A stretch of DNA of 20,000 nt, from IMG/VR virus record IMGVR_UViG_3300032038_000056; one strand, given 5' to 3'. Below the pieces are notes generated by a model. That model made no database searches. It saw nothing but the letters and a program-made list of their open reading frames with translations, and was not told where the DNA came from. Both the position numbers and the translations under genes were made by a program. The DNA is from an uncultured virus (IMG/VR IMGVR_UViG_3300032038_000056). Lineage: Duplodnaviria; Heunggongvirae; Uroviricota; Caudoviricetes. Shown here one piece after another: positions 1-18,349 of the stretch; the stretch's first letter is position 1; every line of letters begins with the position of its first letter.

Positions 1-60
1 GGCATCCTTGATGTGCTCGAAATAGGTCTTTGACAGAGAAGGGGAGGTGTAGTACATCAT
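1..60 (-). CDS. Partial hypothetical protein (5' end, MMYYTSPF...)
   Basis: ATG overlaps the TGA of the upstream gene (ATGA), GAGGAGG upstream, frame open to the window edge. Confidence 0.45.
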   Translation of the reverse strand, partial: MMYYTSPSLSKTYFEHIKDA

Positions 61-476
61 TTCCTCCTCGGTCTTGTCCAGACCCCTGCTTTAGGGGCGT
101 CGTGGTCAAAATACCAACTGAAACTATCGCTGGTCATAGAGATACTACCATCCTTCCCGATAAGGTAGTATTTGTATGTACCAGTAGGACGGTCATCCTT
201 CAGGATCGCTTCTCTGCCGAATGATTTGAACTCGTACTTCGGTCTGATGAACATCTCTGTCGTAACAGTGACCAACTGAAATGCTGGCCTTATAACGCCA
301 TTGGTAATCTTCGGGTTCTTGATGATGATAGTATCAAAATACCTCCCACCGAGTTCCCTACCAGACATTTGGGATGCTTTCTTACGTGCTTCCGTAAGAG
401 AAGTAAACCTTCCGTAAAAGTTCTTCTTGTTCGATGAATAAACATCGTAAGTCTGAGATGTTTTGTAGATCGGCAT
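57..476 (-). CDS. Hypothetical protein, array paralog family
   Basis: SLTEARKKA and YLIGKDGSI motifs; start moved to the ATG after GAAGTGA. Confidence 0.8.
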   Translation of the reverse strand: MPIYKTSQTYDVYSSNKKNFYGRFTSLTEARKKASQMSGRELGGRYFDTIIIKNPKITNGVIRPAFQLVTVTTEMFIRPKYEFKSFGREAILKDDRPTGTYKYYLIGKDGSISMTSDSFSWYFDHDAPKAGVWTRPRRK

Positions 477-481
477 TTTCT

Positions 482-1042
482 TCACTTCTTCTTAGGAGGA
501 TAATCCTTACTGATTTCGCTTACGTGGGAATATCTGAAATTTGCGGGTATCTCCTTGATTGATTCATAGGTCTTATCAAACCTTCCGATTGTCAGATACA
601 TATACTTCTTCTGTGTGGCAGAATATGTGTTCCATAAGGACTTTGCGTATTTGTATGCCGACTCATAGGTTCTAAAGTATTTCAGAGGAGGACGATAGTC
701 CTTATTTGGTATGACACCATCATATTCTCTCAAATTTGCCCACGGTTTGACGAAATACGAATAAGGCATGACCTTCTTTCCTTGGGGCGTCCTATATCTC
801 TCCACATACATTTTTCTAAGCAGAGAGACTGCTTTCTTCTCAATAGTCTTTGGAACATATTGCCATTGGGTATTGAACAACCCTCCTGTTACACGACCGT
901 TTTCATCGATCCCCGCGTAATACGCATACCATCCATCAGTTACCTGAACTTCGGCAATATAGACCCTACCATCACTTGCATCGTTTATCGCCCACTTTCC
1001 ATTGGGGGATTTCCATAGAAGTTTCATGTCTTTTGCTACCAT
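482..1042 (-). CDS. Hypothetical protein
   Basis: Long ORF tiling the array; RBS GGAAGTGA before MVAKD. Confidence 0.8.
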   Translation of the reverse strand: MVAKDMKLLWKSPNGKWAINDASDGRVYIAEVQVTDGWYAYYAGIDENGRVTGGLFNTQWQYVPKTIEKKAVSLLRKMYVERYRTPQGKKVMPYSYFVKPWANLREYDGVIPNKDYRPPLKYFRTYESAYKYAKSLWNTYSATQKKYMYLTIGRFDKTYESIKEIPANFRYSHVSEISKDYPPKKK

Positions 1043-1056
1043 TTTTTCACTTCCTC

Positions 1057-1386
1057 TCAAATTTCATACACAGTTCCGACTGGAACATCCATAGTACCAC
1101 GAATGACCTTCCTTGCGGTAGGCAGGAATGTTTCATCAGAGGATGTGGTGAATGACTTGTCGATCCTACCCGTCCTGTGGATTCCAAAATACCCGCTGTC
1201 AATGACGTTCTTGTAGGGGTCGTAACTATACCAGAGACACGTTGCGAATCCATAATCCATCAGATGCAGATTGGAACTCACAAGTTTCTTTGCACCTGTT
1301 TCTGTAGTACGATGCCCGATGAACATCCTACCACGCTTGCCGTTTGCCATCTTTACAGGGATAAATACAAAAAACATCTTTGCCAT
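1057..1386 (-). CDS. Hypothetical protein
   Basis: GAGGTGA RBS; TETGAKK helix-like motif. Confidence 0.8.
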   Translation of the reverse strand: MAKMFFVFIPVKMANGKRGRMFIGHRTTETGAKKLVSSNLHLMDYGFATCLWYSYDPYKNVIDSGYFGIHRTGRIDKSFTTSSDETFLPTARKVIRGTMDVPVGTVYEI

Positions 1387-1392
1387 ATTCTT

Positions 1393-1446
1393 TCACCTCA
1401 GTTCAGCACCCAGACTTCCGTCAGCGTAGATCTTGTATCTTACCAT
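1393..1446 (-). pseudogene. 17-aa mini-ORF or collapsed paralog MVRYKIYADGSLGAELR
   Basis: Hand translation; family-type N-terminus joined directly to the family C-terminal motif; ATG ~23 nt after a TATA box. Confidence 0.55.
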
Positions 1447-1468
1447 ATTTATTTGTATGGGGTACAGG

Positions 1469-1486
1469 ATATAAAAGAGTAACGTA
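1469..1486 (-). promoter_or_regulatory. Archaeal-type TATA promoter (TTTTATAT)
   Basis: TATA at 1469-1476, ATG at 1446, TTACGTTAC motif just upstream. Confidence 0.6.
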
Positions 1487-1496
1487 AAGATATTAC

Positions 1497-1508
1497 AAAA
1501 AAAGGGGG
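1497..1508 (-). terminator. Oligo-T terminator
   Basis: CCCCCTTTTTTT just after the stop of 1516..1920. Confidence 0.55.
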
Positions 1509-1515
1509 AATGGGG

Positions 1516-1920
1516 TCAAAGACCCATCGTTCTCTTGTTGGGATACGTGTAGTCGGAGATGACATCGCCAGACTTCTTCGACTTGATCCTCTGTGCGGTA
1601 ACGAACGTCAGATAGTTCGCACCAGGGATTCCAGCGAATGTTCCGCTGACCGAGAAGTACAGGGTGTTGTAGTATCCGTCGGACAGTTTTCCGCCCATCT
1701 CGGACTTGACCTCTACGGTGCGGGATTTGGATCTGTTCCTGACCATCGCTGTGAAACTGAGGTAGGAGTCCTTCGAGATATCGAACAACAGCATCTTGTG
1801 GCCGTTCTTCATCCCCTTCATATCCTGTTTGTCCTTGATCTCATCAACGGTCGCGTAGACCATCCCGTACACGATCCCTCTGAATCTTTCAGGCAGTTCG
1901 TCCAGTTGCATCCTTGTCAT
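1516..1920 (-). CDS. Hypothetical protein ending TMGL
   Basis: GGGGTGA RBS; ORF tiles the array. Confidence 0.8.
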   Translation of the reverse strand: MTRMQLDELPERFRGIVYGMVYATVDEIKDKQDMKGMKNGHKMLLFDISKDSYLSFTAMVRNRSKSRTVEVKSEMGGKLSDGYYNTLYFSVSGTFAGIPGANYLTFVTAQRIKSKKSGDVISDYTYPNKRTMGL

Positions 1921-1924: not shown

Positions 1925-2290
1925 TCACCCCATTAGGAATTGCTTTCTGCAATATGATATATATCCCTTTTGTGAATTTCCTTTCTCATACAATTTCTTT
2001 TCACTGATCTCTTTGTAATCAAAACTCTGAACGTAGATGTCCCCTTTGGAGTTCATTGTGTAATACCTGTTATTATCTATGTATGCTACCATCTTTTTTG
2101 TTTCTGTGTTATATACTTTACCATATTTACTGGTAGAGATATAACCGATAGGGGATGCATACGCAAATTTCAGCAAATCCTTGCGTGTTTTGAAATATTT
2201 TGCCCCTTCGTGACCGCTGACTCCAAATCCAGGCGCAGACGAACTGCTTGAGTACACATATTTCCATTTTCCGCTTTGAGTAGAAGTCAT
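1925..2290 (-). CDS. Hypothetical protein
   Basis: ATGA overlap with the upstream gene; YTMNSKGDI resembles the family motif. Confidence 0.8.
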   Translation of the reverse strand: MTSTQSGKWKYVYSSSSSAPGFGVSGHEGAKYFKTRKDLLKFAYASPIGYISTSKYGKVYNTETKKMVAYIDNNRYYTMNSKGDIYVQSFDYKEISEKKLYEKGNSQKGYISYCRKQFLMG

Positions 2291-2559
2291 ATTTTCACCA
2301 GTTTACCTTTGATTATGATGTAACTCCCGTGCAGTTCCCAGACGGGTCTGGTCACGACGGTATATCCGATGTGTCCGCTACCGCCGAATCTGTATTCTAC
2401 GCCTTTCTTGAGCGCAACGTTCTTGTGGATCATAACTTCAGAACCGTCGGGAAGGGTCTTAGCGAACATCTTTGCGGACGATAATGCATCCAGAGGGACT
2501 TCGTGCTGTCTTCCCGTAGGGGAGGTTCTGTACCATATCTTGTATTTCGTGTTAATCAT
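2287..2559 (-). CDS. Hypothetical protein
   Basis: GAGGT RBS; LSSAKMFA motif. Confidence 0.8.
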   Translation of the reverse strand: MINTKYKIWYRTSPTGRQHEVPLDALSSAKMFAKTLPDGSEVMIHKNVALKKGVEYRFGGSGHIGYTVVTRPVWELHGSYIIIKGKLVKI

Positions 2560-2571: not shown

Positions 2572-2898
2572 TTATGATTTGATCATTCTCCACCCAATCT
2601 TTCCGAGTTTTCCATTGGGGGGTATCGTGTAACTGTACTTTTCGGTATTTCTCGAACTTTCATACTGAGGTGTGAATGAAGGGGACACCCAACATACACC
2701 TATGATATACCGTGAATCCCCTCCAGAATCATCGCGGAGATCCTGTCTGATCTGTGCTCCTTTTCCAGCGGGATATTTGTATACATCGTATATGGTGTAA
2801 TCATACGATTTCTGTTTAAGAGATCTGTATGCAAATGCCAGAGCCTCTGACATTGTACCAAATTCCTTGAAGATTCTTCCAGTGTTTATACCGTACAT
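2572..2898 (-). CDS. Hypothetical protein, array paralog family
   Basis: TMSEALAFA and YTIPPNGKLGK motifs; start 4 nt after the upstream PFGL stop. Confidence 0.8.
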   Translation of the reverse strand: MYGINTGRIFKEFGTMSEALAFAYRSLKQKSYDYTIYDVYKYPAGKGAQIRQDLRDDSGGDSRYIIGVCWVSPSFTPQYESSRNTEKYSYTIPPNGKLGKIGWRMIKS

Positions 2899-2902: not shown

Positions 2903-3235
2903 TCACAATCCGAATGGATGCGGTTTTGCATCCTTCCTTTTCTTTCTCTTATTCGTAGTGCCGTCCAGATTCAGATGATGTGCGCCAGAACCGTTGCCGC
3001 TCCAGTTGAACCACGAGAACCCGCCAGAGGCATTCTTACGGACGTATCCGCAAACTGTTCCGTCCGAAAATACACCAATCTCATGTTTCTTGCCGTCCGC
3101 TCCAAAACGCCCGTTCATTAGGATCTCTATAGCGGACGCTCTTACTCTTTCGAGTCCTGTTATATCCCCTGTAAGGAATCTCTCGGTCTGCCCGTCAAGA
3201 TCTCCGATGCGGTAAAGGTAGAGCGAATACATCAT
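2903..3235 (-). CDS. Paralog-family protein with C-terminal HPFGL tag
   Basis: LERVRASA, LNLDGT, ends KRKKRKDAKPHPFGL. Confidence 0.85.
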   Translation of the reverse strand: MMYSLYLYRIGDLDGQTERFLTGDITGLERVRASAIEILMNGRFGADGKKHEIGVFSDGTVCGYVRKNASGGFSWFNWSGNGSGAHHLNLDGTTNKRKKRKDAKPHPFGL

Positions 3236-3236: not shown

Positions 3237-3554
3237 TCACATCCTCTTTCCAAATGTCCTATACAGGTTTTCAACGGATTCAGAGGTCAATGCCTCCGAA
3301 ATCCTGTCAGCGTATTGCACTGCTTTTTTGAGTGAATCGAGTTCAAGTGTATACTTCTTGTAGACACTGACCATACCTTTTATCGGAGACCACATGGATG
3401 CCACATACCCGCTGGCCTTCTTATTTATCCTCCAATAGTAGTTATAAGTCCCTATCTTCGGGATGTTTATCCCTATATCGTATCCCCATATAGAAGGTTC
3501 TTTGCTGATGATGTACGTTCTTCCGTAATTTCCGATGACGTATGATATGGCCAT
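3237..3554 (-). CDS. Hypothetical protein
   Basis: GAGGAGAGG RBS; DSLKKAVQYA motif near the C-terminus. Confidence 0.8.
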   Translation of the reverse strand: MAISYVIGNYGRTYIISKEPSIWGYDIGINIPKIGTYNYYWRINKKASGYVASMWSPIKGMVSVYKKYTLELDSLKKAVQYADRISEALTSESVENLYRTFGKRM

Positions 3555-3564: not shown

Positions 3565-3906
3565 TCACAGTCCGAACGGTGCTGGCTCGGTTTTCTTCTT
3601 CGTGTACGATTTGATGCGGTTCATAGCCTCCCTCTCGGTCAGAAGAACCTTTCTGGACAGACCAGTGAACTCGTACATATACGTCCTTCTCTCGCTGTCG
3701 TACCACTTGTACCCCCTGACGACAGCAACCGTTTCGTGTACCCCTCTGGAGGAAATCTTGTCGATGGTGGCGTAATAATACGCACCTTCCTCTACCGATC
3801 TGGAAGTCAGTCTTTTCAGCCACCAGAGTCCTTCTCTGATGACCTTGTTCTCAATCGCTGTACGCGATGCGGTTGTATATGAGTCCCCTGTCGTATACTC
3901 GGTCAT
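3565..3906 (-). CDS. Hypothetical protein with C-terminal APFGL tag
   Basis: Ends KKKTEPAPFGL. Confidence 0.85.
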   Translation of the reverse strand: MTEYTTGDSYTTASRTAIENKVIREGLWWLKRLTSRSVEEGAYYYATIDKISSRGVHETVAVVRGYKWYDSERRTYMYEFTGLSRKVLLTEREAMNRIKSYTKKKTEPAPFGL

Positions 3907-3907: not shown

Positions 3908-4228
3908 TTACCACTTTTTCAGTTTGCCGTTCGTGAACAGTCCATGTCTACCGTTATGCACCCAGTACCATTCATGAGTTCCTTCGTATCTGAACTTGGG
4001 ATTCCTCCAATAGATGTTTTCTTCGACTACGCCAGCAATCTTGTTGCCAGATGGGTCGAGGTATATGTACGGTCCTGTGGATTTACCCTTGACCTTACCA
4101 GACTGTAGTGCGATGGATCTTGCTCTTGCCTTTTCGAGAGATGTATAAGGGCGGGCATAATGCTCGTAGAGGTTGCGGTCCCATCCCCTTCCCCCTCTTA
4201 ATTTATGTTCAATTACATAGTAGGTCAT
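3908..4228 (-). CDS. Hypothetical protein, array paralog family
   Basis: MTYYVIE start, SLEKARARS, FTNGKL. Confidence 0.85.
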   Translation of the reverse strand: MTYYVIEHKLRGGRGWDRNLYEHYARPYTSLEKARARSIALQSGKVKGKSTGPYIYLDPSGNKIAGVVEENIYWRNPKFRYEGTHEWYWVHNGRHGLFTNGKLKKW

Positions 4229-4232: not shown

Positions 4233-4622
4233 TCACAATCCGAACGGTGCTGGTTTGCTCTTGTTCTTCTTCCTCTTCTCCTGTCTCTCACGGGTCTCAT
4301 CGGAGTCATATGCCCATCCTTTGAGTGCCTTGACCATCTGTGCCTCGGTCATATCTTTCAGCGACGGGAATATAAGAGGTATCTCGGACAGGGGGATCAC
4401 AACAGCATCGCTGTCCTTTATGCGCGTGCCGTATTCCCTCTCGGCATCGAATACGACTGCGGTCTTGTTCCTCAGTGCGCCCAGATAGGTTCTGAACACC
4501 TGTGAGACCGCTAGACCCTTGCCCTTGACCTCCATTACGATGACGTGGGGTTTCTTCATCTGTGTGGAGGTAGGCACGTATGCATCTTCCAGATAGGATC
4601 CAGGGAACTTGTATTTGGCCAT
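4233..4622 (-). CDS. Hypothetical protein with C-terminal APFGL tag
   Basis: Ends KRKKNKSKPAPFGL; body lacks the family motifs. Confidence 0.85.
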   Translation of the reverse strand: MAKYKFPGSYLEDAYVPTSTQMKKPHVIVMEVKGKGLAVSQVFRTYLGALRNKTAVVFDAEREYGTRIKDSDAVVIPLSEIPLIFPSLKDMTEAQMVKALKGWAYDSDETRERQEKRKKNKSKPAPFGL

Positions 4623-4635: not shown

Positions 4636-4974
4636 TTACTGTCTCTTCTTTTTGAGGAACTGCTCTCTGTGTTCCTTGATTTGTTCCACAACCCAATCGG
4701 TATCCTTTTTGATGACCCCGTAGAGATCGCCAGTCGAATCCATACTATACAGTTTACCGTTGCTGTACCACACCAAATGTTCATCGTAGTGGTTGTTGCG
4801 ACCGATGGTGTAGTATTCCATCGTTGCACCGACATAACGGTTCTCGTTGTAGATCATAGCGATACGACCACCGCGAAGTCCGTCGCTGAAGAACATATCG
4901 TAACTCTTCCCTCTCGCACCGTTAAGGGTCTTGGCTGATGCCTTCTTTCCTTTGCAATAGATGTAGTAGGTCAT
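4636..4974 (-). CDS. Hypothetical protein, array paralog family
   Basis: MTYYIY start, TLNGARGKS, YSMDSTGDL. Confidence 0.85.
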   Translation of the reverse strand: MTYYIYCKGKKASAKTLNGARGKSYDMFFSDGLRGGRIAMIYNENRYVGATMEYYTIGRNNHYDEHLVWYSNGKLYSMDSTGDLYGVIKKDTDWVVEQIKEHREQFLKKKRQ

Positions 4975-4978: not shown

Positions 4979-5263
4979 TCATAATCCGAAAGGATGCCAC
5001 TCCTTGTTCTTGTTCTTCTTGAACTCGGACGTAAGCCCGTTCTCGTGCAGTCTGAGTTTCTTCCCGAAGACCGTCTCATAGTACGAACCGTTCTTTGAAT
5101 AGTGGCACGTACCGACCCATTTCTGTCCGTTGTAGATGTATGCCTCGTTGCCGTATCTACCGCCAGACAGGATGAAGTAAGCGTTCCTGCGTGCCTCGAT
5201 CAGCGTCATACCCGCTCTCTCACGGATCCCAGAGGCTTTCTCATATTCGACCCAATAGACCAT
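4979..5263 (-). CDS. Paralog-family protein with EWHPFGL tag
   Basis: MVYWVEY, TLIEARRNA, ends KKNKNKEWHPFGL. Confidence 0.85.
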   Translation of the reverse strand: MVYWVEYEKASGIRERAGMTLIEARRNAYFILSGGRYGNEAYIYNGQKWVGTCHYSKNGSYYETVFGKKLRLHENGLTSEFKKNKNKEWHPFGL

Positions 5264-5311: not shown

Positions 5312-5581
5312 TCAAGTCTTCCTTATGACCCCTTCCGAGTTCACGAAATATGCACTGCGGGTCTTGGCATCCGACCAGATGAAATCTCCCCTGTCCTCGT
5401 CGAACGTAACGAACCCTATGGGGAATCTGGAGGTCTTGCTGAGGAAGATCCACGCGACCCTTCCGATACCGACTGTCTTGACCGCCTTTCCGCGTGCCAC
5501 GTTGATGCGTTCGGTGTGTACGTCCTTGCGCTTATCCAAGGGCTTTCCCTTGTAATCCGTGTACTCTATCCAGTATGACAT
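5312..5581 (-). CDS. Hypothetical protein, array paralog family
   Basis: MSYWIEY, INVARGKA, YFVNSEGVI; GAGGTG RBS. Confidence 0.85.
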   Translation of the reverse strand: MSYWIEYTDYKGKPLDKRKDVHTERINVARGKAVKTVGIGRVAWIFLSKTSRFPIGFVTFDEDRGDFIWSDAKTRSAYFVNSEGVIRKT

Positions 5582-5590: not shown

Positions 5591-5875
5591 TCAATCGAGT
5601 TTCCTTCCCAGAGTTCCGTCTGGGTTCATGAGGTATGTTGTGCCTTTACTCCCCCCGTAGGAGATGTAGATGGGTGTCGCATATTTGTTGTATCTTTTAC
5701 CCATCACAACACCGAGTGCAGTCCATCCCTTATTGTGTTTTGCCTTCTCATTACGGGCGCATACATAGATTTCGTTGCATCTTTTTCTGTATGCATTCTC
5801 TCTGGCCTCGGTGATTGTATCATATTCTTCTTTGAACCACTTTTTATCAGAATTGTTCCATAACATATATCTCAT
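5591..5875 (-). CDS. Hypothetical protein, array paralog family
   Basis: TITEARENA, YLMNPDGTLGRK; GAGGTGA RBS. Confidence 0.85.
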   Translation of the reverse strand: MRYMLWNNSDKKWFKEEYDTITEARENAYRKRCNEIYVCARNEKAKHNKGWTALGVVMGKRYNKYATPIYISYGGSKGTTYLMNPDGTLGRKLD

Positions 5876-5885: not shown

Positions 5886-6260
5886 TCACGGGGTCAGATC
5901 CTTCCTCTTGACCTTCTCGCCCAATGCACCAGTGGATGGATTGACCTTGTAGCGATATGTCCTCTTATGCTCGATTTCGCAGTAGTACCCTTTCTTTTTA
6001 GTGTTGTTGTTATAATCCCACGATATCTTCTCTACGAGTATGCCTTCATATCCTCTGTGATACTCGTAGATGAAGCACTTGGCGTAGAACCACCTGCTGT
6101 TCTCCTTGATGAGTTTCACAGCGTCCACTCTGGCCTTTTCCAAGGACTGATACTCGCCCTTCTCCACGCCTTTCGAGGGGTATCTGCTACCGCCGAACAG
6201 AATGGGCTGGATGGTGTATTTGCGGAACTTTCCGATGAATCCGTCTTCTGGATAGTACAT
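5886..6260 (-). CDS. Hypothetical protein, array paralog family
   Basis: SLEKARVDA, YKVNPSTGALGEK. Confidence 0.85.
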   Translation of the reverse strand: MYYPEDGFIGKFRKYTIQPILFGGSRYPSKGVEKGEYQSLEKARVDAVKLIKENSRWFYAKCFIYEYHRGYEGILVEKISWDYNNNTKKKGYYCEIEHKRTYRYKVNPSTGALGEKVKRKDLTP

Positions 6261-6274: not shown

Positions 6275-6655
6275 TCACAATCCATACACATAATTTGAGG
6301 GATGCCAAGGTTCAACCTCTTCCTTAGAGACTTTACGACCGAGAGTGCCGTCAGAATTGAGGATGTACGCCTCCATACTGTTGTGCAGGAGTTTGCGCCA
6401 ATAGATCTTACCGTTACGGCAGAACACGACACCAATCGACATCATCTTCCTTTCAAGATAAGGATCAGATTTTCCATACGTGGAATATATCTTTATGCCG
6501 TTGCCCATCTTCTTACGTGTACTCATCATACGGTACGCCCATTTACGTACATCGGTAAGTGCGCTGTTCTTATCCCATATGGCCTCATTGAACTCATGGG
6601 AAAGGTTCGGTGCGTATCTGTTGCCGATGATTACATCTCCTGTGTATATTGCCAT
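6275..6655 (-). CDS. Paralog-family protein ending WHPSNYVYGL
   Basis: LTDVRKWA, YILNSDGTLGRK; variant tag. Confidence 0.85.
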   Translation of the reverse strand: MAIYTGDVIIGNRYAPNLSHEFNEAIWDKNSALTDVRKWAYRMMSTRKKMGNGIKIYSTYGKSDPYLERKMMSIGVVFCRNGKIYWRKLLHNSMEAYILNSDGTLGRKVSKEEVEPWHPSNYVYGL

Positions 6656-8522: not shown

Positions 8523-8541
8523 ACATCTGAAACGTTGTAGG

Positions 8542-8563
8542 TATATTTAAAAGTGTATTACGT
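8542..8563 (-). promoter_or_regulatory. TATA promoter with upstream ACGTAATAC motif
   Basis: TTTTAAATATA at 8542-8552; GTATTACGT (+ strand) at 8555-8563. Confidence 0.65.
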
Positions 8564-8581
8564 AAAAAGAGGAAAAGGTTT
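8564..8581 (-). terminator. Pyrimidine/oligo-T terminator
   Basis: AAACCTTTTCCTCTTTTT, similar to 11889-11907 and 12268-12284. Confidence 0.55.
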
Positions 8582-11745: not shown

Positions 11746-11755
11746 TTCTCATACC

Positions 11756-11839
11756 TCATATGATGCTTTCAACAGATACCCATTGGTTACATCTCACATC
11801 GCCGTTCTTGTCGATGATCGCCTTGGTATCGGTTGTCAT
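11756..11839 (-). pseudogene. 27-aa mini-ORF or remnant MTTDTKAIIDKNGDVRCNQWVSVESII
   Basis: ATG ~23 nt after TATA; IDKNGDV resembles the family motif; stop overlaps the next RBS. Confidence 0.45.
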
Positions 11840-11861
11840 ACTGATAGAATGGAAAAGACAG

Positions 11862-11888
11862 TATTTAATGGTTATGAAAATGTAATAC
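11862..11888 (-). promoter_or_regulatory. TATA promoter with GTATTAC motif
   Basis: ATTAAATA at 11862-11869; GTAATAC (+ strand) at 11882-11888. Confidence 0.55.
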
Positions 11889-11907
11889 AAAAAGAGGTAA
11901 GGAGTTT
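11889..11907 (-). terminator. Pyrimidine/oligo-T terminator
   Basis: AAACTCCTTACCTCTTTTT after the stop at 11919. Confidence 0.55.
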
Positions 11908-11918
11908 GGAAAAGATAT

Positions 11919-12206
11919 TCAGTAGAATGACAGCGAACCGTCTGCGAGTATGATACCCCTGTCCTCTGACGACCCCGAATCTGGGATGTCGATACTGAAG
12001 TTGCTCACATCGAACCATATAGGGTATTTGTTGAAACCGTACCAGATGGCTGAACCGAACGGGATGGGAGAATCGTTGCTCTTGAAGACATAGACCTCGG
12101 TCTCTTTGTGCTTCCTAGTCCACTCGTAGATGCCCTTACGGGCGGATTTCAAATCCTCGTAGCATTTCCTTTCTTTCTTCCATTCGTACATCACATATAC
12201 AGACAT
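11919..12206 (-). CDS. Hypothetical protein, array paralog family
   Basis: DLKSARKGI, ILADGSL; GGAGGT RBS; apparently monocistronic. Confidence 0.85.
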   Translation of the reverse strand: MSVYVMYEWKKERKCYEDLKSARKGIYEWTRKHKETEVYVFKSNDSPIPFGSAIWYGFNKYPIWFDVSNFSIDIPDSGSSEDRGIILADGSLSFY

Positions 12207-12221
12207 AGATTATTACCTCCG

Positions 12222-12257
12222 ATGTATGTATTCAGAATACATACATTTGTATATATT
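12222..12257 (-). promoter_or_regulatory. TATA promoter with a perfect 12-bp inverted repeat (putative operator)
   Basis: ATGTATGTATTC-A-GAATACATACAT at 12222-12246; AATATATA at 12250-12257. Confidence 0.65.
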
Positions 12258-12267
12258 ACTATCGAAG

Positions 12268-12284
12268 AAAAAAGGAAGAGGTTT
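12268..12284 (-). terminator. Pyrimidine/oligo-T terminator
   Basis: AAACCTCTTCCTTTTTT after the stop at 12289. Confidence 0.55.
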
Positions 12285-12288
12285 GGGA

Positions 12289-12546
12289 TCAGTTGAGACG
12301 GTCCATGACCGCACCAGTGACCCAGTTGAGGGAATAGGCTTTATCACCGCGAAGGAAGTAATACTCATACCTTCCCACATCGAACCCGACGATCCCGTAG
12401 ACAGGCACTTTGCCAGGCGTACCCTGATAGATTCTTACCTCTTTCTGACCGTCTTCGCTGATATGTTTCATCGCTTCCCATCTGGCCTTGCCCAGTGAAT
12501 TGACAAAGACCTTCTTCCTTCCCAATACAGCACGATATCTTACCAT
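12289..12546 (-). CDS. Hypothetical protein, array paralog family
   Basis: MVRY start, SLGKARWEA, YSLNWVTG. Confidence 0.85.
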   Translation of the reverse strand: MVRYRAVLGRKKVFVNSLGKARWEAMKHISEDGQKEVRIYQGTPGKVPVYGIVGFDVGRYEYYFLRGDKAYSLNWVTGAVMDRLN

Positions 12547-12555: not shown

Positions 12556-12912
12556 TCAATTATGTCCATAATTCTCTCTGACTGTCAAAGGGGTCTTACC
12601 ATCCCACGGATAGAGGTCCATCCAACCGTCTAACCACAGTTCTTTTCTTCCGTGATATATTCTGAAATACCCCTTTTCATGACCGACTTTCACCGTAGGG
12701 AGATAGAACCAATCATCATACGCATACGGTTTGCCTTTGGATCCGACCAGTTTGTACCCGTATACATCCACCTCAACATCCTCGCGTACAGAACCCGTCC
12801 AATCCAGATATTCCTTGCCAGATCTTTTGGTTATCTTTGCAAACCGATATTTGGGACGGAAATTAAGACATTGTGTGAGGTATCCCCACCAAGTTCCGAC
12901 GAGTCTGGCCAT
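12556..12912 (-). CDS. Hypothetical protein
   Basis: Tiles the array; GTGAT RBS-like site. Confidence 0.8.
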   Translation of the reverse strand: MARLVGTWWGYLTQCLNFRPKYRFAKITKRSGKEYLDWTGSVREDVEVDVYGYKLVGSKGKPYAYDDWFYLPTVKVGHEKGYFRIYHGRKELWLDGWMDLYPWDGKTPLTVRENYGHN

Positions 12913-12916: not shown

Positions 12917-13207
12917 TCACGCAAATCTTAGAGCCTTGGCTTTCCACGACGGGGTTGCGTACTTCTCCCAGTTCTTGACCCACGTGGAAATTCTGACCCA
13001 TCCGCGACCAGTGTGCTGTGCGACGACGAGCCAGTTACCGCCCTTGGAATTGTACTTGAACAATTCAAAGTTGGTGTCATCGAACCCCCATCCAGTGAGT
13101 TTATCACGACATACCTTGGCGATTTCATTCATATCCATGGACTTGACGTTCAGCATCTTTACTGCAAATTCGTCACCGAGTTTACATACAGCGATTATCT
13201 GTGTCAT
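12917..13207 (-). CDS. Hypothetical protein
   Basis: Tiles the array; AGGTGTGAGG upstream. Confidence 0.8.
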   Translation of the reverse strand: MTQIIAVCKLGDEFAVKMLNVKSMDMNEIAKVCRDKLTGWGFDDTNFELFKYNSKGGNWLVVAQHTGRGWVRISTWVKNWEKYATPSWKAKALRFA

Positions 13208-13209: not shown

Positions 13210-13479
13210 TCACACCTTCCTCTTAGGCATAAGACCGATGTTCTGTAGAACAGATTTGCTCGCATACACGATGACTCCGCCTGATCTGAAACACCATCCA
13301 AGAACACGCCCTCCGTCACCAAAAAGTGTGGATTCCTTATAATCATCACGGTAGTTGTTCTGTGCGTGAGTTTTGAGTTGCTTTATAGCGGATTCATAGG
13401 TACTCGCTTTGAACTCCCACACACCCTTCGAGGGCATTCTTCCTTTCACAATTCCGAAACATCCGTAAAATGTTGCCAT
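13210..13479 (-). CDS. Hypothetical protein
   Basis: AGGTGA RBS; STYESAIKQ. Confidence 0.8.
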   Translation of the reverse strand: MATFYGCFGIVKGRMPSKGVWEFKASTYESAIKQLKTHAQNNYRDDYKESTLFGDGGRVLGWCFRSGGVIVYASKSVLQNIGLMPKRKV

Positions 13480-13488: not shown

Positions 13489-13842
13489 TTACCTGTACTC
13501 TTTTCTTAATGTCATAAGTGTCTTGAGGAGGTATACTGCCTCAGTATCCTTCTGACCGTTTCTGGACATATTCTCGATGTCCTCTTTCAAAGATGCGACC
13601 GTATACTCATAATTGGTCTTGTCCGTAACGATGGTGTAAAAACCCGCATAGGTGTCCTCATTGATACCCTCTACGTTCCCGTGAAATGCGTTATAGGTGT
13701 ATCTGTACATCCTGCACGCCCAGTTGAATACAGCGGGATCCTTGCAGAACCTCTGTATCTTGGGGGAATTGCTGTACGACAGAGCCTTACGGGGTCTCTG
13801 CATCCTCGACCTTACCGTTTCCAATTTGATAGCCATCGTCAT
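13489..13842 (-). CDS. Hypothetical protein
   Basis: GGGGAGTGA RBS; abuts the upstream stop. Confidence 0.8.
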   Translation of the reverse strand: MTMAIKLETVRSRMQRPRKALSYSNSPKIQRFCKDPAVFNWACRMYRYTYNAFHGNVEGINEDTYAGFYTIVTDKTNYEYTVASLKEDIENMSRNGQKDTEAVYLLKTLMTLRKEYR

Positions 13843-14097
13843 TCACTCCCCGTATCTCTTTCCGTTCTTACTGATAGAACCATCCTTGTTGATCCTTCTC
13901 TCGGACTTGTAATCCCCGTAGGTGTAGACACCATCCCATTCACGGACAAGCCCCATGAGCGTCTTGTAGTTCCAGATAAAGACCACTGTCGTATCGAAAC
14001 CGTCATTGACCTTCTTTATCGCCTTTCTGCGTGCGTCATCGAGGTTATCCGCCTCATCGAGCAGTCTGTCCATTCCCGATCTGATTTGATATCTCAT
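13843..14097 (-). CDS. Hypothetical protein, array paralog family
   Basis: NLDDARRKA, INKDGSI. Confidence 0.85.
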   Translation of the reverse strand: MRYQIRSGMDRLLDEADNLDDARRKAIKKVNDGFDTTVVFIWNYKTLMGLVREWDGVYTYGDYKSERRINKDGSISKNGKRYGE

Positions 14098-14106: not shown

Positions 14107-14349
14107 TCAATATGTTTTTCCGTTCCTGTAAAGTTTGTAGAATCTTTTACTCTTCTTAGAGAACCACACATATCCGTCATGTCTGGAGATCACGCCGTCC
14201 ATGACCGTCGAATTTTTGGATGGGAACATATATGCAACAGGGATTCCGTGATTCTCGTCCATCACATCCATAGCGTACTGACGTGTTTTGACTATGGAAT
14301 CGTAACCTCTCTCCCTATACCCTTTTCCGAAATCAATCCAGTACACCAT
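14107..14349 (-). CDS. Hypothetical protein, array paralog family
   Basis: MVYWIDFGKG, IVKTRQYA, LYRNGK. Confidence 0.85.
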   Translation of the reverse strand: MVYWIDFGKGYRERGYDSIVKTRQYAMDVMDENHGIPVAYMFPSKNSTVMDGVISRHDGYVWFSKKSKRFYKLYRNGKTY

Positions 14350-14354: not shown

Positions 14355-14690
14355 TCACCTCTCTTTAGCAATCGTACCATCCATATTCAGTGCATATTTC
14401 GGATGACGCTCGTTATTGATGACCCAGTAAAATGTACCCTTATAGCGTACAACGGATCCGTACATATTATACTTTGATTTACCGACGGAGATGCCTTTTA
14501 TGGATTTTCCAAAGATAGCAGCATTGGGACGGAACGCTCTGGTGACATATGCAGACATCCCCTCGGATCTCCCCGCGATATACAGTTTGATTGCGAACTC
14601 CCTTGCTTTATCCAGCGTAGAGAATGTAAAATCCTCATATTCTTCACCGTACCCGCCTCTGCCTTTGGAAACAGTAACGTAGAACGTCAT
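14355..14690 (-). CDS. Hypothetical protein, array paralog family
   Basis: TLDKAREFA, YALNMDGTI. Confidence 0.85.
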   Translation of the reverse strand: MTFYVTVSKGRGGYGEEYEDFTFSTLDKAREFAIKLYIAGRSEGMSAYVTRAFRPNAAIFGKSIKGISVGKSKYNMYGSVVRYKGTFYWVINNERHPKYALNMDGTIAKER

Positions 14691-14703: not shown

Positions 14704-15000
14704 TCAATATTCCTTCATCTTTACGATACGTCCGTCCGAGAGTGCGTAATAGGGGAAACGCTGAACACCGCTCTTGTCGATGGGCATCCACATCCACCTT
14801 CCGACATATCCCCCCGCAAAGTAGATTTTCCCGATGGGTCTCGACTTACTGCTGGTGTATAGAGTTGCTGCCGACCTGTAATCCGTCTTATATGCGTTCT
14901 TACAGACATCCAGAACGATCCTTCTGGCTTTTACCGCACTATCCGTCATAAGATTCTCGCGGATCCCTTTCTGAAACGAATACTCCACCCAGTATGCCAT
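14704..15000 (-). CDS. Hypothetical protein, array paralog family
   Basis: MAYWVEY, AVKARRIV, YALSDGRI. Confidence 0.85.
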   Translation of the reverse strand: MAYWVEYSFQKGIRENLMTDSAVKARRIVLDVCKNAYKTDYRSAATLYTSSKSRPIGKIYFAGGYVGRWMWMPIDKSGVQRFPYYALSDGRIVKMKEY

Positions 15001-15004: not shown

Positions 15005-15310
15005 TCACAGTCCGAACGGAGATGCCCTCTTCTCAACAGGTCTTCTGAGTCCGAGATACCTCTCCACCTCTCTCTTTGCGTCATCGAGATAATGGAAGGT
15101 ACGAATATATGTAGGCTTTTTTACAATCATATATGTAAGATGATGGCCGTCTAATCTCTTTTTCATTACAGTTATCGTATAATCAGAAGACCCTATCTTT
15201 TCAACTCTTCCAAAGATTTTATCGGACCCCTCGATATACAGATCGTACCTGACGAAACCTCTGACACCTGCTACTCTTTCAGTTTTGACCCATTTGAATG
15301 CTCTTGCCAT
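15005..15310 (-). CDS. Hypothetical protein with SPFGL tag
   Basis: FHYLDDAKRE; ends EKRASPFGL. Confidence 0.85.
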   Translation of the reverse strand: MARAFKWVKTERVAGVRGFVRYDLYIEGSDKIFGRVEKIGSSDYTITVMKKRLDGHHLTYMIVKKPTYIRTFHYLDDAKREVERYLGLRRPVEKRASPFGL

Positions 15311-15321: not shown

Positions 15322-15681
15322 TCAGAACATCGAATCGTTTGCCGACCATCCCTTGCTGTATCTCTCACCAGTGATGATGTTCGCCAGATAACGCTTGCGG
15401 GTCTTTGCATCAATCATCTTTCCGCACGTATGATCGCCGTAATGCACTACACCATAACAGTATGCAACGATACTTTTCGTATTGGATGCGGGGTTGTATG
15501 AATAAAGAGTGATACGGGGGTCGCCCTCGTACTGCACATTGATCTTGGAAACGAATGCTTCTCCGACCGTCAGTGCTGTTGCCATCGCCTTGTTGGTAGA
15601 GGTATATGAGACCTCGTGGCTCTTTCCGTTGATGATACACCATTTCGTATATTTGGTAGGCTTTTTTGTAACCGCTTTCAT
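15322..15681 (-). CDS. Hypothetical protein
   Basis: AGGTGA RBS; tiles the array. Confidence 0.8.
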   Translation of the reverse strand: MKAVTKKPTKYTKWCIINGKSHEVSYTSTNKAMATALTVGEAFVSKINVQYEGDPRITLYSYNPASNTKSIVAYCYGVVHYGDHTCGKMIDAKTRKRYLANIITGERYSKGWSANDSMF

Positions 15682-15690: not shown

Positions 15691-16035
15691 TTAAATTGTA
15701 TATTTGAGGGCGTGTATGCCCAGTTTCTTGAGCGTCACTCCGCAGTCCTCGGTGAACGCATCGAATCCTCCATCTACCTTAGCACAACTGATAAACTCGA
15801 TACCTGTTTTCGCCCATCCTGTCGGTTTCACCCATGCATCAAGGTACTCGATCTTCTTCTTGCGATATGTCTGAATGATGTTTCCTTTCCAATCGAAGAG
15901 GACCCCAGAGAGTGATTTTTCGGTCCTATCAGTTACCTTAAAGAAGTAGGCGAGTTCAGGTTTTCCATATATCCTTCCGACCTTGAACCTTGCCGTATCC
16001 GTAGTCTTGATACTCAAACGTGAACGCTCAACCAT
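15691..16035 (-). CDS. Hypothetical protein
   Basis: GAGGTGA RBS; FKVG.IY...FKVTDRTEKS motif. Confidence 0.8.
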   Translation of the reverse strand: MVERSRLSIKTTDTARFKVGRIYGKPELAYFFKVTDRTEKSLSGVLFDWKGNIIQTYRKKKIEYLDAWVKPTGWAKTGIEFISCAKVDGGFDAFTEDCGVTLKKLGIHALKYTI

Positions 16036-16044: not shown

Positions 16045-16437
16045 TCACAGTCCGAACGGGGATGCTTTCTTCTTAACGGATCCCTTACGCAGAGTTCCGT
16101 CAGAGTTGATTGTGATTTCAGACCTTGACTTGGTGGTAGAATACCCAGTCCATACGAACTTGACACCCCCAGAAGTGGTGCTCTTGACTCCGACGAATCC
16201 GCACCTTGAAACGATGCCGTTCTTTATGGTATTGATATTCACACCGTATACTGCATAAGGCAGTTCGTCTCCGTATTTGCGGTAGTTGTCAAATCTCTTT
16301 TCAGTCAGTCTGTACTGGGTCTTGAGGAACAGCATCGCGTGTTTGCGTGCATCGACAAGATTGCTGAATACCTTGAGCCTGCCACCCATATTCTTGGGTC
16401 CGCCCGATCCGTAGAAATCCATAAAGAACTGTGCCAT
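16045..16437 (-). CDS. Paralog-family protein with SPFGL tag
   Basis: NLVDARKHA, INSDGTL, ends KKKASPFGL. Confidence 0.85.
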   Translation of the reverse strand: MAQFFMDFYGSGGPKNMGGRLKVFSNLVDARKHAMLFLKTQYRLTEKRFDNYRKYGDELPYAVYGVNINTIKNGIVSRCGFVGVKSTTSGGVKFVWTGYSTTKSRSEITINSDGTLRKGSVKKKASPFGL

Positions 16438-16457
16438 TCTTTCACTTCCTTTAATTT

Positions 16458-16487
16458 GTATTACGTATCTGCGTTATACTATATAAT
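16458..16487 (-). promoter_or_regulatory. TATA promoter with downstream ACGTAATAC motif
   Basis: ATTATATA at 16480-16487; GTATTACGT (+ strand) at 16458-16466. Confidence 0.6.
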
Positions 16488-16500
16488 GACTCCTCTCTCC

Positions 16501-16833
16501 TCAATATGCCGACTGTATCAGATGCCAGTCGCGAATGTCGGAGATGTGCTTTCCGAGAGTTCCGTCCTTACGGAGAACATACCAGAAACTCCTCTCTCTG
16601 CCATCGATCATAACCCTCTTTTCAAGGATGAATTTGCCCTCTTTTGTGAAATACACACCCTCAGTACAGGGGGAACGGACAAATGCGACGATTGCCTCAT
16701 GTGTCCTTATCAGACTCATGCACTTCTTACGCGCATCGGACTTGAACTTGAAGGTCGTGAACTTCCCGTCTTTACCACGCATGAATACGTAGTGGTACGG
16801 ATGTACTGTTGTCTTATACTCTATGCAATACAT
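16501..16833 (-). CDS. Hypothetical protein, array paralog family
   Basis: KSDARKKC, YVLRKDGTLGK. Confidence 0.85.
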   Translation of the reverse strand: MYCIEYKTTVHPYHYVFMRGKDGKFTTFKFKSDARKKCMSLIRTHEAIVAFVRSPCTEGVYFTKEGKFILEKRVMIDGRERSFWYVLRKDGTLGKHISDIRDWHLIQSAY

Positions 16834-16838
16834 CTTTT

Positions 16839-17186
16839 TCACCAGAACGTGTAACCTATCTTCTTATAATGATTACGTGCTTCCATGAAATTATTATACC
16901 CGACAGTACCATAACTGAGAGTGGAAAGGCTGCCATAATAGGTATCTATATCCCAATACTTTTCTGGGGTCTCCCACACACAATGGAAATAATATTTTCC
17001 CAAAAACTCTGTACGATAGGGTGTCAGTATTCCGATAGGTTCTTTTGTATTCTTACCAGAATAGAAATACACGGGTCTCAGTCTCTTGAAAGAGGGGAGT
17101 TGTTTGATGAAATCCGATCTGATGTTCTTCACAGTATCATTGATCGCCATCCTCTCTCCTTTTCCAATCTGCACATACGTAACCAT
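16839..17186 (-). CDS. Hypothetical protein
   Basis: GAGGTGA RBS; weak family resemblance. Confidence 0.8.
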   Translation of the reverse strand: MVTYVQIGKGERMAINDTVKNIRSDFIKQLPSFKRLRPVYFYSGKNTKEPIGILTPYRTEFLGKYYFHCVWETPEKYWDIDTYYGSLSTLSYGTVGYNNFMEARNHYKKIGYTFW

Positions 17187-17191
17187 TTTTC

Positions 17192-17500
17192 TCACCTCAG
17201 TCTCTTTCCGAGTGTTCCGTTCTTATACAGTTGGTACTTACCATCGGCTGCATAGTGTCCATCCTTGGAGGGATACCAGTATCTTGTTCCCTGATACCAC
17301 TTGTGTACCTCTCCCTTGAGAACATACGGACCAGCGATGTTCTTTCCGACCTCATAGACCGAGACCATCTTGTTGTTGTAATTTCCCACGACCTCGTAGG
17401 CGGACTTGCGTGCATTGGTAAGGGTATTGTGACTGCTCACAGTCCTTCCGACGTTCTTCCTGTAATAGTCCTCGACTACGACCTTGTATTTTCCTTCCAT
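17192..17500 (-). CDS. Hypothetical protein, array paralog family
   Basis: TLTNARKSA, YQLYKNGTLGK. Confidence 0.85.
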   Translation of the reverse strand: MEGKYKVVVEDYYRKNVGRTVSSHNTLTNARKSAYEVVGNYNNKMVSVYEVGKNIAGPYVLKGEVHKWYQGTRYWYPSKDGHYAADGKYQLYKNGTLGKRLR

Positions 17501-17511
17501 ATCAAAACACC

Positions 17512-17799
17512 TCACAGTCCAAAGGTATAGGTCAGCAGTTTCTTGACCGTACCATTCACGTTGAGTTCCTGAATGGAATCATAAGTGACCCACCAGAACC
17601 TGTCCATCTTACAGGAAACCTTACCGACATAAGAGTTCTTGTTCTGTGATGCATAAATCTTACAGACCTTCGGACGAAAATCCGCATAGATCGTCTTCTG
17701 TTTGAAATCCATAAAGGAAATCGCCATACTACGGGTTTTTGAAAGAGAGTCCACGCCTTTCTCAAGTTTTCCGTTTCCGAAATCGAGCCAATATACCAT
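17512..17799 (-). CDS. Paralog-family protein ending TFGL
   Basis: MVYWLDFGNG, SLSKTRSMA, LNVNGTV. Confidence 0.85.
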   Translation of the reverse strand: MVYWLDFGNGKLEKGVDSLSKTRSMAISFMDFKQKTIYADFRPKVCKIYASQNKNSYVGKVSCKMDRFWWVTYDSIQELNVNGTVKKLLTYTFGL

Positions 17800-17837
17800 A
17801 TTGAACACCTTTTGAATGTATTACGAATATAACGGTT

Positions 17838-18128
17838 TCAGTATTTATACATTCTTTTCAGACTGAGGGAGTTCTGACGCGGATGTATGAAGTTCCCGTT
17901 ATAATCCAGACGTTTGATGACCTTCCGCCCTCTGTGGAATGTCGTATAGAAATAACCGATCCCGTTGGTCTGCACCCATCCAGAGGGTCTTTGCGTACCC
18001 CTGTCGCGGTACAGCGGGATATTGGTATAGAAATCATGGCGTTTCATCTCTCTGACGCATTCCCTTACGGCATCCTCCAGAGAGAGGAAGCACGCCTCGT
18101 AATCATAGAACTCGACGTAGTATCTCAT
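17838..18128 (-). CDS. Hypothetical protein, array paralog family
   Basis: MRYYVEF, SLEDAVRE, LDYNGNF. Confidence 0.85.
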   Translation of the reverse strand: MRYYVEFYDYEACFLSLEDAVRECVREMKRHDFYTNIPLYRDRGTQRPSGWVQTNGIGYFYTTFHRGRKVIKRLDYNGNFIHPRQNSLSLKRMYKY

Positions 18129-18349
18129 TCTTTGATGGATCCATCGCTGTAAAGCACATATGTCTTATCGTTCGGCGGGGAGAACAGTACCCTGTTATCC
18201 TTGGTAAGAACGACTCCAGCATAAGCGGCCCCCTGTGCCGTGATCCTCGTGAGGTTGGCTGATACGCCCGTTTTCTTCACTTTCTTGTATGCGTAAGCCC
18301 TTGCTGAATTTATCGACATGAATCTTTTATTGCCTATCGTATAGAACAT
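18125..18349 (-). CDS. Hypothetical protein, array paralog family (first gene of the array)
   Basis: GAGGTGA RBS before MFYTIG; SINSARAYA, YVLYSDGSI. Confidence 0.85.
   Translation of the reverse strand: MFYTIGNKRFMSINSARAYAYKKVKKTGVSANLTRITAQGAAYAGVVLTKDNRVLFSPPNDKTYVLYSDGSIKE

Follow-up and report, generated by a model that had tools for sequence, protein, structure and literature searches.

Organization of the gene array

The DNA analysed here is a stretch of 20,000 nucleotides (nt) from an uncultured virus (IMG/VR record IMGVR_UViG_3300032038_000056), referred to below as the window. Positions 57-18551 of the window are occupied by a tightly packed array of 55 small genes, all on the minus strand, in which about 30 genes of one undescribed protein family are interleaved with 25 small genes from outside that family. 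The minus strand carries every plausible gene in the list of open reading frames (ORFs) from 18551 down to 57. Array genes were numbered g00 to g54 in descending order of coordinates, and all features whose coordinates are given below lie on the minus strand.

Starts of array genes were picked by ribosome-binding site. The genes span 55-186 codons, with a median of 103. Intergenic gaps (n = 54) have a median of 9 nt; 40 of them are of 12 nt or less, and there are 4 overlaps. At least 5 nt of GGAGGTGA were found 3-12 nt upstream of 33 of the 55 starts, and 4 nt at 14 more. The GC content of the window is 43-49% and GC skew is steadily negative. No tRNA was found on scanning the window, and no family was matched in it by an Rfam scan. 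The ratio of nonsynonymous to synonymous substitution rates (dN/dS) was 0.13 when pooled over 17 orthologue pairs which, together with the ribosome-binding sites and the tight gaps, shows that the array genes are real and working.

The isoelectric point (pI) exceeds 8 in 53 of the 55 array proteins (median 9.6), and proteins from outside the family are as basic as its members. The exceptions are g00 (pI 4.4) and g20 (pI 5.8), the latter being the sole acidic member of the family.

Definition of the protein family

Family members were gathered by iterated hmmbuild/hmmsearch from 7 seed genes, shared tails having been stripped first, and the search converged in 5 rounds. All-against-all phmmer of the array proteins gave 17 pairs at E<0.01. 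The iterated profile gathered 29 of the 55 array genes and, at E<10, none of 1,155 decoys (20 shuffles per gene plus reversals). On leave-one-out scoring, which is mildly circular in that each row was dropped from one fixed alignment built with that row, 28 of the 29 members scored above the best decoy (9.5 bits, filters off). The one that fell short was g33 (7625..7903), a doubtful member recruited by the profile, which reached only 5.6 bits. Conversely g02 (17838..18128, 96 residues), which the profile had left out, scored 14.8 bits against the full model and 80.8% by hhalign over its N-terminal 30 residues, making it a probable member. Among the 26 non-members compared with the family by hhalign, g02 alone stood out; the other 25 were at shuffle level (best shuffle 6%). 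With the loss of g33 and the gain of g02 the copy number is 28-30.

The outermost members are g01 (18125..18349, 74 residues, leave-one-out score 42.3 bits), in which GAGGTGA lies 4 nt before the ATG, and g54 (57..476, 139 residues, 18.7 bits), which carries an insertion. Scores of the remaining members are likewise from leave-one-out. Following g01 and g02 are g03 (17512..17799, 37.2 bits), g04 (17192..17500, 102 residues, 42.7 bits), g06 (16501..16833, 110 residues, 16.7 bits) and g07 (16045..16437, 28.3 bits). A run of four consecutive members is formed by g11 (14704..15000, 98 residues, 18.5 bits), g12 (14355..14690, 111 residues, 34.3 bits), g13 (14107..14349, 80 residues, 46.4 bits) and g14 (13843..14097, 84 residues, 30.4 bits). 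The central part of the array holds g19 (12289..12546, 85 residues, 17.4 bits), g20 (11919..12206, 18.1 bits), g22 (11036..11428, 13.5 bits) and g25 (10295..10588, 27.2 bits). From g30 (8598..8834, 78 residues, 41.8 bits) the series continues with g31 (8217..8522, 45.3 bits), g32 (7913..8215, 23.6 bits), g33, g34 (7291..7620, 109 residues, 41.9 bits) and g35 (6986..7294, 102 residues, 14.4 bits). It resumes with g37 (6275..6655, 36.3 bits), g38 (5886..6260, 124 residues, 17.8 bits), g39 (5591..5875, 32.8 bits), g40 (5312..5581, 89 residues, 22.9 bits), g41 (4979..5263, 24.1 bits) and g42 (4636..4974, 112 residues, 16.9 bits). The last members before g54 are g44 (3908..4228, 106 residues, 14.5 bits), g47 (2903..3235, 14.3 bits) and g48 (2572..2898, 108 residues, 20.9 bits).

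Over 162 sequences the family signature is M-x-Y-x-[VI], followed by [ST]-[LI]-x-x-A-R-x-x-A (Arg in 96%), G-x-V (Gly in 98%), a Trp and Y-x-L-N-x-[DN]-G-[TS]-[LI] (Gly in 99%). In Pfam the family members remained below curated cut-offs, with DUF6117, DUF6296 and Hepar_II_III_C appearing sub-threshold at 16-22 bits. PHROGs, NCBIfam and PADLOC, the last of which holds defence models and not anti-defence ones, gave no match for any family member (E<=0.001-0.01). The family is an undescribed alpha+beta domain of 80-130 residues.

The original prediction, made from the letters of the window, had proposed about 30 copies of one highly diverged family of small basic proteins between 57 and 18349, with a recurring motif architecture and a conserved small scaffold bearing variable surfaces. 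These proposals stood. Profile similarity among the copies is significant, the proposed limits are those of g54 and g01, and the six coordinates cited as examples (5591, 6275, 8598, 14355, 16501 and 17192) each mark where a minus-strand ORF stops, all six ORFs encoding family members. The motif architecture recurs over the 162 sequences, member pI has a median of 9.6, and the folds predicted for two members agree as described below. The common C-terminal tail, the 25 non-family array genes and the turnover of cassettes had been overlooked.

Predicted structure

An AlphaFold2 model of g39, computed from a 29-row alignment, reached a predicted local distance difference test (pLDDT) score of 89.5 and a predicted template modelling (pTM) score of 0.81, and consists of two strands, a helix and five strands. 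The alignment used to model g32 held 17 rows, from 5 window genes and 12 external relatives. This model reached a pLDDT of 78.4 and its last 14 residues, which form the tail, are coil. The two models agree in the order of their elements, in which respect they were compared without superposition. As we read the model and the alignment, the conserved Tyr of strand 1, the A-R-x-x-A helix, G-x-V, the Trp and the Y-x-L-N-x-D-G hairpin would form the core, and the surface would vary by copy. A two-copy complex prediction of the family domain scored 0.02, which weighs neither way.

Foldseek searches of PDB and BFVD with the family model gave no match at E<=0.001, and the top score of an exhaustive VIA structure search was a Z of 5.3, under the tool's usual background of 7-8. 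The second VIA match was the anti-CRISPR protein AcrIF9 (PDB 7chr, 7bb5), with 62 residues aligned at a root-mean-square deviation of 3.3 and 10% identity; its Z of 5.2 is also below the background. AcrIF9 had no row among the best 50 Foldseek rows from PDB, none of which was at E<=0.001. It resembles the family in being a small alpha+beta protein of similar size, but with a sub-background Z and no sequence signal the match is evidence of neither kinship nor function.

A profile search of PDB sequences matched only beta-propellers and trefoils, whether designed or natural, and did so by way of the hairpin at the C-terminus. The blade motif of PQQ-like propellers (P0019 and P0048 among the matches, and the designed 'Bagel' and 'Cake' propellers) matches the family hairpin Y-x-L-N-x-D-G-T-L, which is why repeat proteins turn up among profile matches. 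Kinship with PQQ-like propellers was considered and rejected: hhalign gave 32.8% over 24 columns, and the PDB and database matches cover only profile positions 42-99, as multiple repeats. Unlike these propellers, the family begins with a strand-strand-helix unit at its N-terminus, and its model is a compact monomer. Given the hhalign value of 33% over 24 columns, the likeness was taken as a common hairpin motif.

The C-terminal tail

At the end of thirteen of the 55 genes, codons for a stretch rich in Lys and Arg are followed by those for two to four variable residues and for Pro-Phe-Gly-Leu, immediately before the stop codon (the PFGL tail). The tail is portable between families, being found in six family genes (g07, where the Lys-rich linker is evident, g25, g32, g33, g41 and g47) and in seven non-family genes: g10 (15005..15310), g23 (10855..11025, 56 residues), g24 (10599..10844), g27 (9506..9982), g36 (6666..6986), g43 (4233..4622) and g45 (3565..3906). 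Degenerate tails occur in four more genes, among them g03 (TFGL), g22 (VRGL) and g37 (VYGL). The DNA pattern of the tail occurs 15 times in the window, against 0.78 expected. The absence of long DNA repeats claimed in the original prediction holds in general, with one exception: the sole repeat family of the window is a junction unit of 31-55 nt in 11 copies, comprising tail codons, stop, ribosome-binding site and the next start.

Outside the window, PFGL forms the C-terminus of 13 of 153 external relatives (defined below) and close variants of it that of 3 others; some of these proteins are less than 40% identical to any window gene. In an alignment of 17 family proteins with a tail, all 17 had PFGL unchanged and the linker varied. 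P0047, P0068 and P0130 end instead in the longer [FM]-G-L-[ND]-[WL]-N-[IL], which may be a sister docking peptide.

The tail could be conserved mainly as nucleic acid, as a coupling or recombination joint made up of tail codons, TGA, GGTGA and ATG, with the peptide as a by-product. The 11-copy repeat, which runs from the tail through the stop and ribosome-binding site to the next start, would be expected on this explanation, and several cassette joints in related contigs coincide with tail junctions. Codon choice is also much narrower in the tail than in gene bodies (GGA in 12/13 against 37%, TTC in 13/13 against 74%, CTG in 10/13 against 33%), so part of the conservation may act on DNA or RNA, at the junction, the ribosome-binding site or in recombination, or the tail may have spread as a DNA unit. 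Against this, the copies variously use CTG, TTG or TTA for Leu and CCG, CCT or CCA for Pro, 6 of the 13 tails retain PFGL with no ribosome-binding site following, and orthologues alter the linker and keep PFGL (as in g24 compared with contig L013). These three observations together indicate constraint at the level of the peptide. Relatives below 40% identity likewise keep the exact PFGL while the linker varies, and tail-less genes are coupled just as tightly as those with a tail. We therefore regard conservation mainly as nucleic acid as unlikely.

The tail is a putative portable docking signal. Its Lys-rich linker and PFGL may together bring unrelated small proteins to one reader, which could be a hub of the host or of the virion. 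Short C-terminal docking or address peptides include the bacterial sliding-clamp-binding motifs, the IGF loop of ClpX, the capsid-targeting sequence of T4 and the encapsulin cargo-loading peptides. Like these, the tail joins a flexible linker to a handful of invariant hydrophobic residues at the very end of otherwise unrelated proteins. We know of no motif that consists of Pro-Phe-Gly-Leu-COOH behind a Lys-rich linker, and of the readers we considered (sliding clamp, ClpP, HslV, PCNA, the proteasome, ribosomal stalk partners and PDZ proteases) none, to our knowledge, fits well enough to be named. A literature search for a 'PFGL' C-terminal tail gave nothing on such a tail in titles and the opening parts of abstracts.

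Selection and cassette turnover

Orthologue pairs for dN/dS were ungapped, of at least 75% identity, and taken from four short relative contigs. The 17 pairs gave values of 0.04-0.26. Among family members these included 0.07 for g01 (against L015), 0.04 for g04, 0.26 for g11, 0.16 for g12, 0.08 for g14, 0.17 for g35, 0.10 for g37 and 0.05 for g40. Among the other array genes they were 0.06 for g00, 0.19 for g15, 0.11 for g24 (against L013), 0.05 for g36, 0.25 for g43, 0.07 for g46, 0.21 for g49 and 0.17 for g51. Array orthologues are under purifying selection, and the diversifying selection that the original prediction had suggested was not borne out, at this depth of comparison, by the 17 pairs, with their pooled value of 0.13. 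Its other suggestion, of deep divergence among the copies, agrees with the data: the closest pair of paralogues in the window reaches 34.7% identity over 72 residues. Paralogues that are nearest in sequence seldom lie side by side in the array, and several paralogues have external orthologue lines of their own at 52-68% identity. From the low paralogue identity and the external orthologue lines the expansion is old and did not arise in a recent tandem burst.

Whole genes were seen to come and go between related ruminant-gut contigs, with breakpoints at gene borders. Contigs from the bovine runs X1 and X2 are about 97% identical to the window where the two overlap, one stretch of 2,708 bases having 75 differences. 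g10 is cleanly missing from X1, X2 and X3 (joint 15005->15318, 3 nt between), as are g03-g05 (joint 16825->17794, 2 nt between). g26 is missing from X1-X3 as well, and g25 there bears a different PFGL tail (joint 9994->10338). In X1 and X2 other DNA takes the place of g42 (606 bases), g17 (525 nt) and g21-g22, and g08 is skipped across a 12 nt microhomology at the junction of ribosome-binding site and start. X6 is without g52-g53, g12-g13 and g30, and its g46-g48 are replaced. L015 and L025 show a mosaic of a similar kind, g13 being missing in L015. These patterns would be explained if each paralogue were kept by purifying selection while whole genes were exchanged, lost and replaced by recombination at short conserved junctions.

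Small single-domain proteins, a fast-turnover region and the presence or absence of cassettes between near-identical genomes would also suit an anti-defence arsenal, the leading idea of the original prediction, namely an arms-race library in which each paralogue would block a different host immune protein such as a clustered regularly interspaced short palindromic repeats (CRISPR) effector or a restriction enzyme. The second rank of AcrIF9 among the VIA matches (62 residues) points the same way, but its Z of 5.2 is under the background of 7-8. Orthologues of an arms-race library would not be expected under purifying selection with a dN/dS of 0.13, and the paralogue lineages are old and conserved across elements. 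Many anti-defence inhibitors are acidic DNA mimics, unlike the high-pI proteins that make up 53 of the 55 here; the uniform basic charge is a better fit to a nucleic-acid binder, an option also named in the original prediction, than to an inhibitor of that acidic type. We consider an anti-defence role unlikely.

Distribution outside the window

An exhaustive profile search of 1.84 billion proteins gave 401 representative clusters at E<=1e-3, and a word-indexed search returned 10 near relatives only, all unnamed. The external set (n = 153) was composed of 150 listed of the 401 clusters and the 10 near relatives, minus four hairpin-only repeat proteins. The four (P0011, P0019, P0048 and P0049) were rejected as members, being repeat proteins that match the hairpin only. 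The set comprises 129 single-domain proteins and 23 long forms of 179-472 residues, most of which hold two profile-matching stretches. By sequence reading, P0026 and P0044 have an additional N-terminal part. The pI exceeds 8 in 149 of the 153, Tyr accounts for 8.3% of residues, and net charge has a median of +7. When 27 external relatives were scanned against Pfam, no domain reached threshold.

The sequencing runs with parts of the window (shares of at most 0.39) were bovine and sheep gut metagenomes, habitat being known for the four runs compared. There were no RNA runs among those listed. A metagenome scan with the pattern E-W-H-P-F-G-L-stop found 17 loci, of which four were true relatives (L013, L015, L018 and L025; up to 5.3 kb; JGI or ENA). 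Of the other 13, 7 were from soil (about 60% GC) and 6 lacked a family or tail ORF. The soil contigs L011, L014, L019, L022, L023 and L024 hold the 24-nt pattern by chance, in L014 and L024 in a frame opposite a long ORF, and could mislead motif searches.

Megablast of the window against GenBank phages and tblastn of P0040 against plasmids gave no match. An IMG/VR scan with the tail pattern returned 5 loci, none with family or tail ORFs, and one with the hairpin pattern returned 1 locus, on a 243-kb contig, with no family match. In the literature on rumen phage paralogues and on Methanomassiliicoccales viruses the family is not mentioned in the titles and abstracts listed.

Other genes of the array and flanking genes

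The array opens with g00 (18384..18551), an acidic protein of 55 residues whose start has no ribosome-binding site. By eye, its sequence looks like a regulator of the AbrB/SpoVT swapped-hairpin type, with no library match. The only array gene outside the family with a named domain is g27, a DUF7678 protein (PF24726, 1.3e-22, 79.9 bits against a cut-off of 27; phrog_4709), to which a PFGL tail is attached; no literature on 'DUF7678' was found.

Among the small basic genes, g05 (16839..17186), g09 (15322..15681), g16 (13210..13479) and g18 (12556..12912) were assigned from ORF, pI and hhalign, and g28 (9243..9500), g29 (8862..9224) and g52 (1057..1386) from ORF and pI. g53 (482..1042), assigned from ORF and charge, is the largest array gene (186 residues, net charge +15). 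The remaining small basic genes are g08 (15691..16035), g15 (13489..13842), g17 (12917..13207), g21 (11434..11745), g26 (9992..10285), g46 (3237..3554), g49 (2287..2559), g51 (1516..1920) and g50 (1925..2290). The last has a hairpin-like motif, and its hhalign value against the family of 4.2% is at noise level. Language-model neighbours of g43 carry annotations as fragments of HerA, DUF87 or TrwB (0.92); the 143 features that they share with it fall short of the 170 that signal kinship.

Upstream of g00 lies a resolvase-like gene (18591..19196; PF00239, 2.1e-06, 28.3 bits, model positions 30-140 of 145; phrog_125). Its NCBIfam match, YneB-like, reached 20 bits against a cut-off of 175, and the N-terminal 30 residues are unaligned. 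The Pfam match runs from position 30 on, and no clear N-terminal catalytic Ser motif is visible; the protein may be an inactive DNA-binding relative. The next gene encodes a PnuC nicotinamide riboside transporter (19243..19968; PF04973, 1.8e-29; TIGR01528; phrog_1880). X1 and X2 diverge just after the resolvase-like gene (loose end 19231), so that PnuC is not always adjacent.

Transcription signals and host

Nine array gaps of at least 25 nt, together with the two at the flanks, are rich in AT (62%, compared with 53% for coding DNA). Of 12 coding-strand matches to a TATA-like consensus, 7 fall between genes, in DNA that makes up 5.8% of the window. TATA-like boxes end 19-23 nt before starts that have no ribosome-binding site in three cases: the resolvase-like gene (19-21 nt before the ATG), g00 (23 nt) and g31, whose ATG follows the end of TTTAAATA at a distance of 21 nt. 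In a fourth case the box stops about 25 nt short of a 27-codon mini-ORF. Runs of at least five T are intergenic in 6 of 10 cases, and no hairpin was seen on reading four of the five gaps that hold them. Going by these signals, the window has the layout of archaeal-type transcription units, with a TATA-like box about 22 nt before a leaderless start and oligo-T without a hairpin. Sigma-70-like sites (29 against 34.6 expected) and hairpin terminators (18 against 14.4 expected) were not above shuffles.

Four intergenic units carry these signals. That at 11746..11918, between g20 and g21, holds a T-run, a TATA-like box and the mini-ORF, and is 95% identical in L015. The peptide of the mini-ORF (11756-11839) has a family-like hairpin motif, I-I-D-K-N-G-D-V, and the ORF could represent either a micro-gene or what is left of a cassette. 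The unit at 12207..12288 holds a T6 run, a TATA-like box and, before g20, an inverted repeat (12216-12240), which is perfect, of 12+12 nt with a 1-nt centre, directly upstream of the g20 ribosome-binding site; the repeat may act as an operator or fold into a hairpin in RNA. A T5 run and a TATA-like box precede g31 at 8523..8597. The unit at 1387..1515 has a short hairpin, a T7 run and a TATA-like box.

The 57 stop codons comprise 47 TGA, 10 TAA and no TAG. In any frame, the coding strand has 88 TAG trinucleotides against 390 TGA and 232 TAA. Pyrrolysine-using methanogens of the seventh order, including the rumen cluster, seldom use amber as a stop (PMC3941956). From the TATA-like boxes, the T-runs without hairpins and the avoidance of TAG the host is probably archaeal, perhaps a methanogen; an archaeal host, which the original prediction had also envisaged, is plausible on the promoter and terminator layout and on TAG avoidance.

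Alternatively the host would be a bacterium, a Firmicute, the element an ordinary lytic phage and the TATA-like boxes mere AT-rich spacers. The genes with database relatives point to bacteria. By tblastn the DUF7678 gene g27 has matches in 36 GenBank phage records whose named hosts are nearly all Firmicutes, and the best genome matches of PnuC are in Scybalousia and Treponema, at 47-49% identity. The strong GAGGTGA ribosome-binding site also suits Firmicutes, and a short hairpin precedes one T-run. A Firmicute phage would not, however, be expected to lack enrichment of sigma-70-like sites and hairpin terminators, to have three or four starts without ribosome-binding site 19-25 nt behind a TATA-like box, or to use no TAG among 57 stops. 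The family was found in 0/401 sampled Bacillota genomes, though a lytic phage would give the same result and the search, having no positive control, shows little; four genomes holding PnuC relatives gave one marginal family match (E 0.003). A Firmicute host is a real possibility, which we rate below an archaeal one.

Nature and proposed function of the element

The element is most likely a virus. In the Atlas, labelled neighbours of g30 are 100% viral and the best structural TM score, 0.84, falls in a viral cluster. DUF7678, PnuC and the resolvase-like (invertase-like) gene belong to PHROG families, and the Bacillota genomes gave 0/401. A chromosomal island of polymorphic-toxin immunity proteins would likewise present tandem, co-oriented, diverse small genes with cassette replacement between strains. 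Such islands are reported to show tandem arrays of this kind (PMC3482391). Neither a toxin module nor a known immunity family was found among the 57 proteins of the window, however, and the viral Atlas clusters and the 0/401 genomes also count against an island. So do the longest contigs on record for the clusters of eight relatives, of 68.4, 65.7, 64.2, 52.8, 34.9, 28.4, 26.4 and 16.4 kb. We regard a chromosomal immunity island as very improbable.

The array may represent the fast-turnover accessory arm of a mobile element from ruminant guts, with 55 co-oriented and translationally coupled genes. Its basic, Tyr-rich proteins are putative binding modules for nucleic acid or acidic host targets, each paralogue perhaps with a specificity of its own. 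We give about even chances to the reading that positions 57-18551 are the accessory cassette region of a virus-like element encoding a library of basic binding modules, of which a subset bears a docking tail. A bolder version, that the array encodes more than 50 small basic adaptors of a rumen-methanogen virus, with linker and PFGL as a new address peptide for a single hub and the modules swapped as cassettes, is speculative and we would not expect it to hold in full.

Several observations weigh against the reading as a cassette region of binding modules. The family has no structural neighbour with a known ligand. The window has neither a capsid nor a terminase gene, nor any other viral hallmark. 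Tblastn of g30, P0040 and P0031 against 50,697 GenBank phage records found no relatives, and IMG/VR scans with g11, the tail pattern and the hairpin pattern found no family relatives. The bacterial affinities of g27 and PnuC, the GAGGTGA site and the narrow codon choice of the tail, all described above, belong here too.

A role as virion cargo, in which the basic proteins would travel packed alongside the DNA, to be ejected into the cell, and PFGL would be a label targeting them to capsid or portal, would make use of two of the same features. Uniform basic charge would suit packing together with DNA, and the attachment of one short tail to unrelated proteins is typical of address labels, for which the T4 capsid-targeting sequence and the encapsulin peptides are possible analogies. 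The tail is on only 13 of the 55 genes, though, the window has no structural genes, and the regulator-like neighbour and long coupled operons say nothing on late expression. Virion cargo is accordingly improbable in our view, more so than an anti-defence role, and the library of binding modules is retained as the preferred reading.

Small-gene arrays in the accessory regions of viruses are among the least understood parts of viral genomes, and this one offers a tractable case. One undescribed fold with hundreds of natural variants is suited to structure and binding studies. Cassette exchange has been caught between near-identical genomes in a clear pattern, and a four-residue tail common to unrelated proteins can be used directly as bait for its reader. 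If the host is a rumen methanogen, the array would be among very few leads on the ways in which viruses deal with the archaea responsible for ruminant methane.

Comparison with known systems

Jumbo phages are reported to have lineage-specific expansions of small proteins (PMC7824862). The array is similar in that one small domain is represented by tens of diverged paralogues within a virus genome. It differs in that the domain is another, undescribed one, the genes form a contiguous block in which 25 unrelated small basic genes are interspersed, and the tail crosses families.

The closest described behaviour to the turnover of the array is, by analogy, the shuffling of hyperplastic regions in T4-type phages, where PeSL junction cassettes are reported (PMC2839356, PMC4122927). 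In both, blocks of small genes without known function are gained, lost and swapped between near-identical genomes at short conserved intergenic motifs. The T4-type junction consists of a promoter and stem-loop, whereas that of the array is formed by a start codon with its ribosome-binding site, in many cases together with a tail of 24 coding nt. Unlike the T4-type regions, the array draws over half of its genes from one paralogous family, and its host is probably archaeal.

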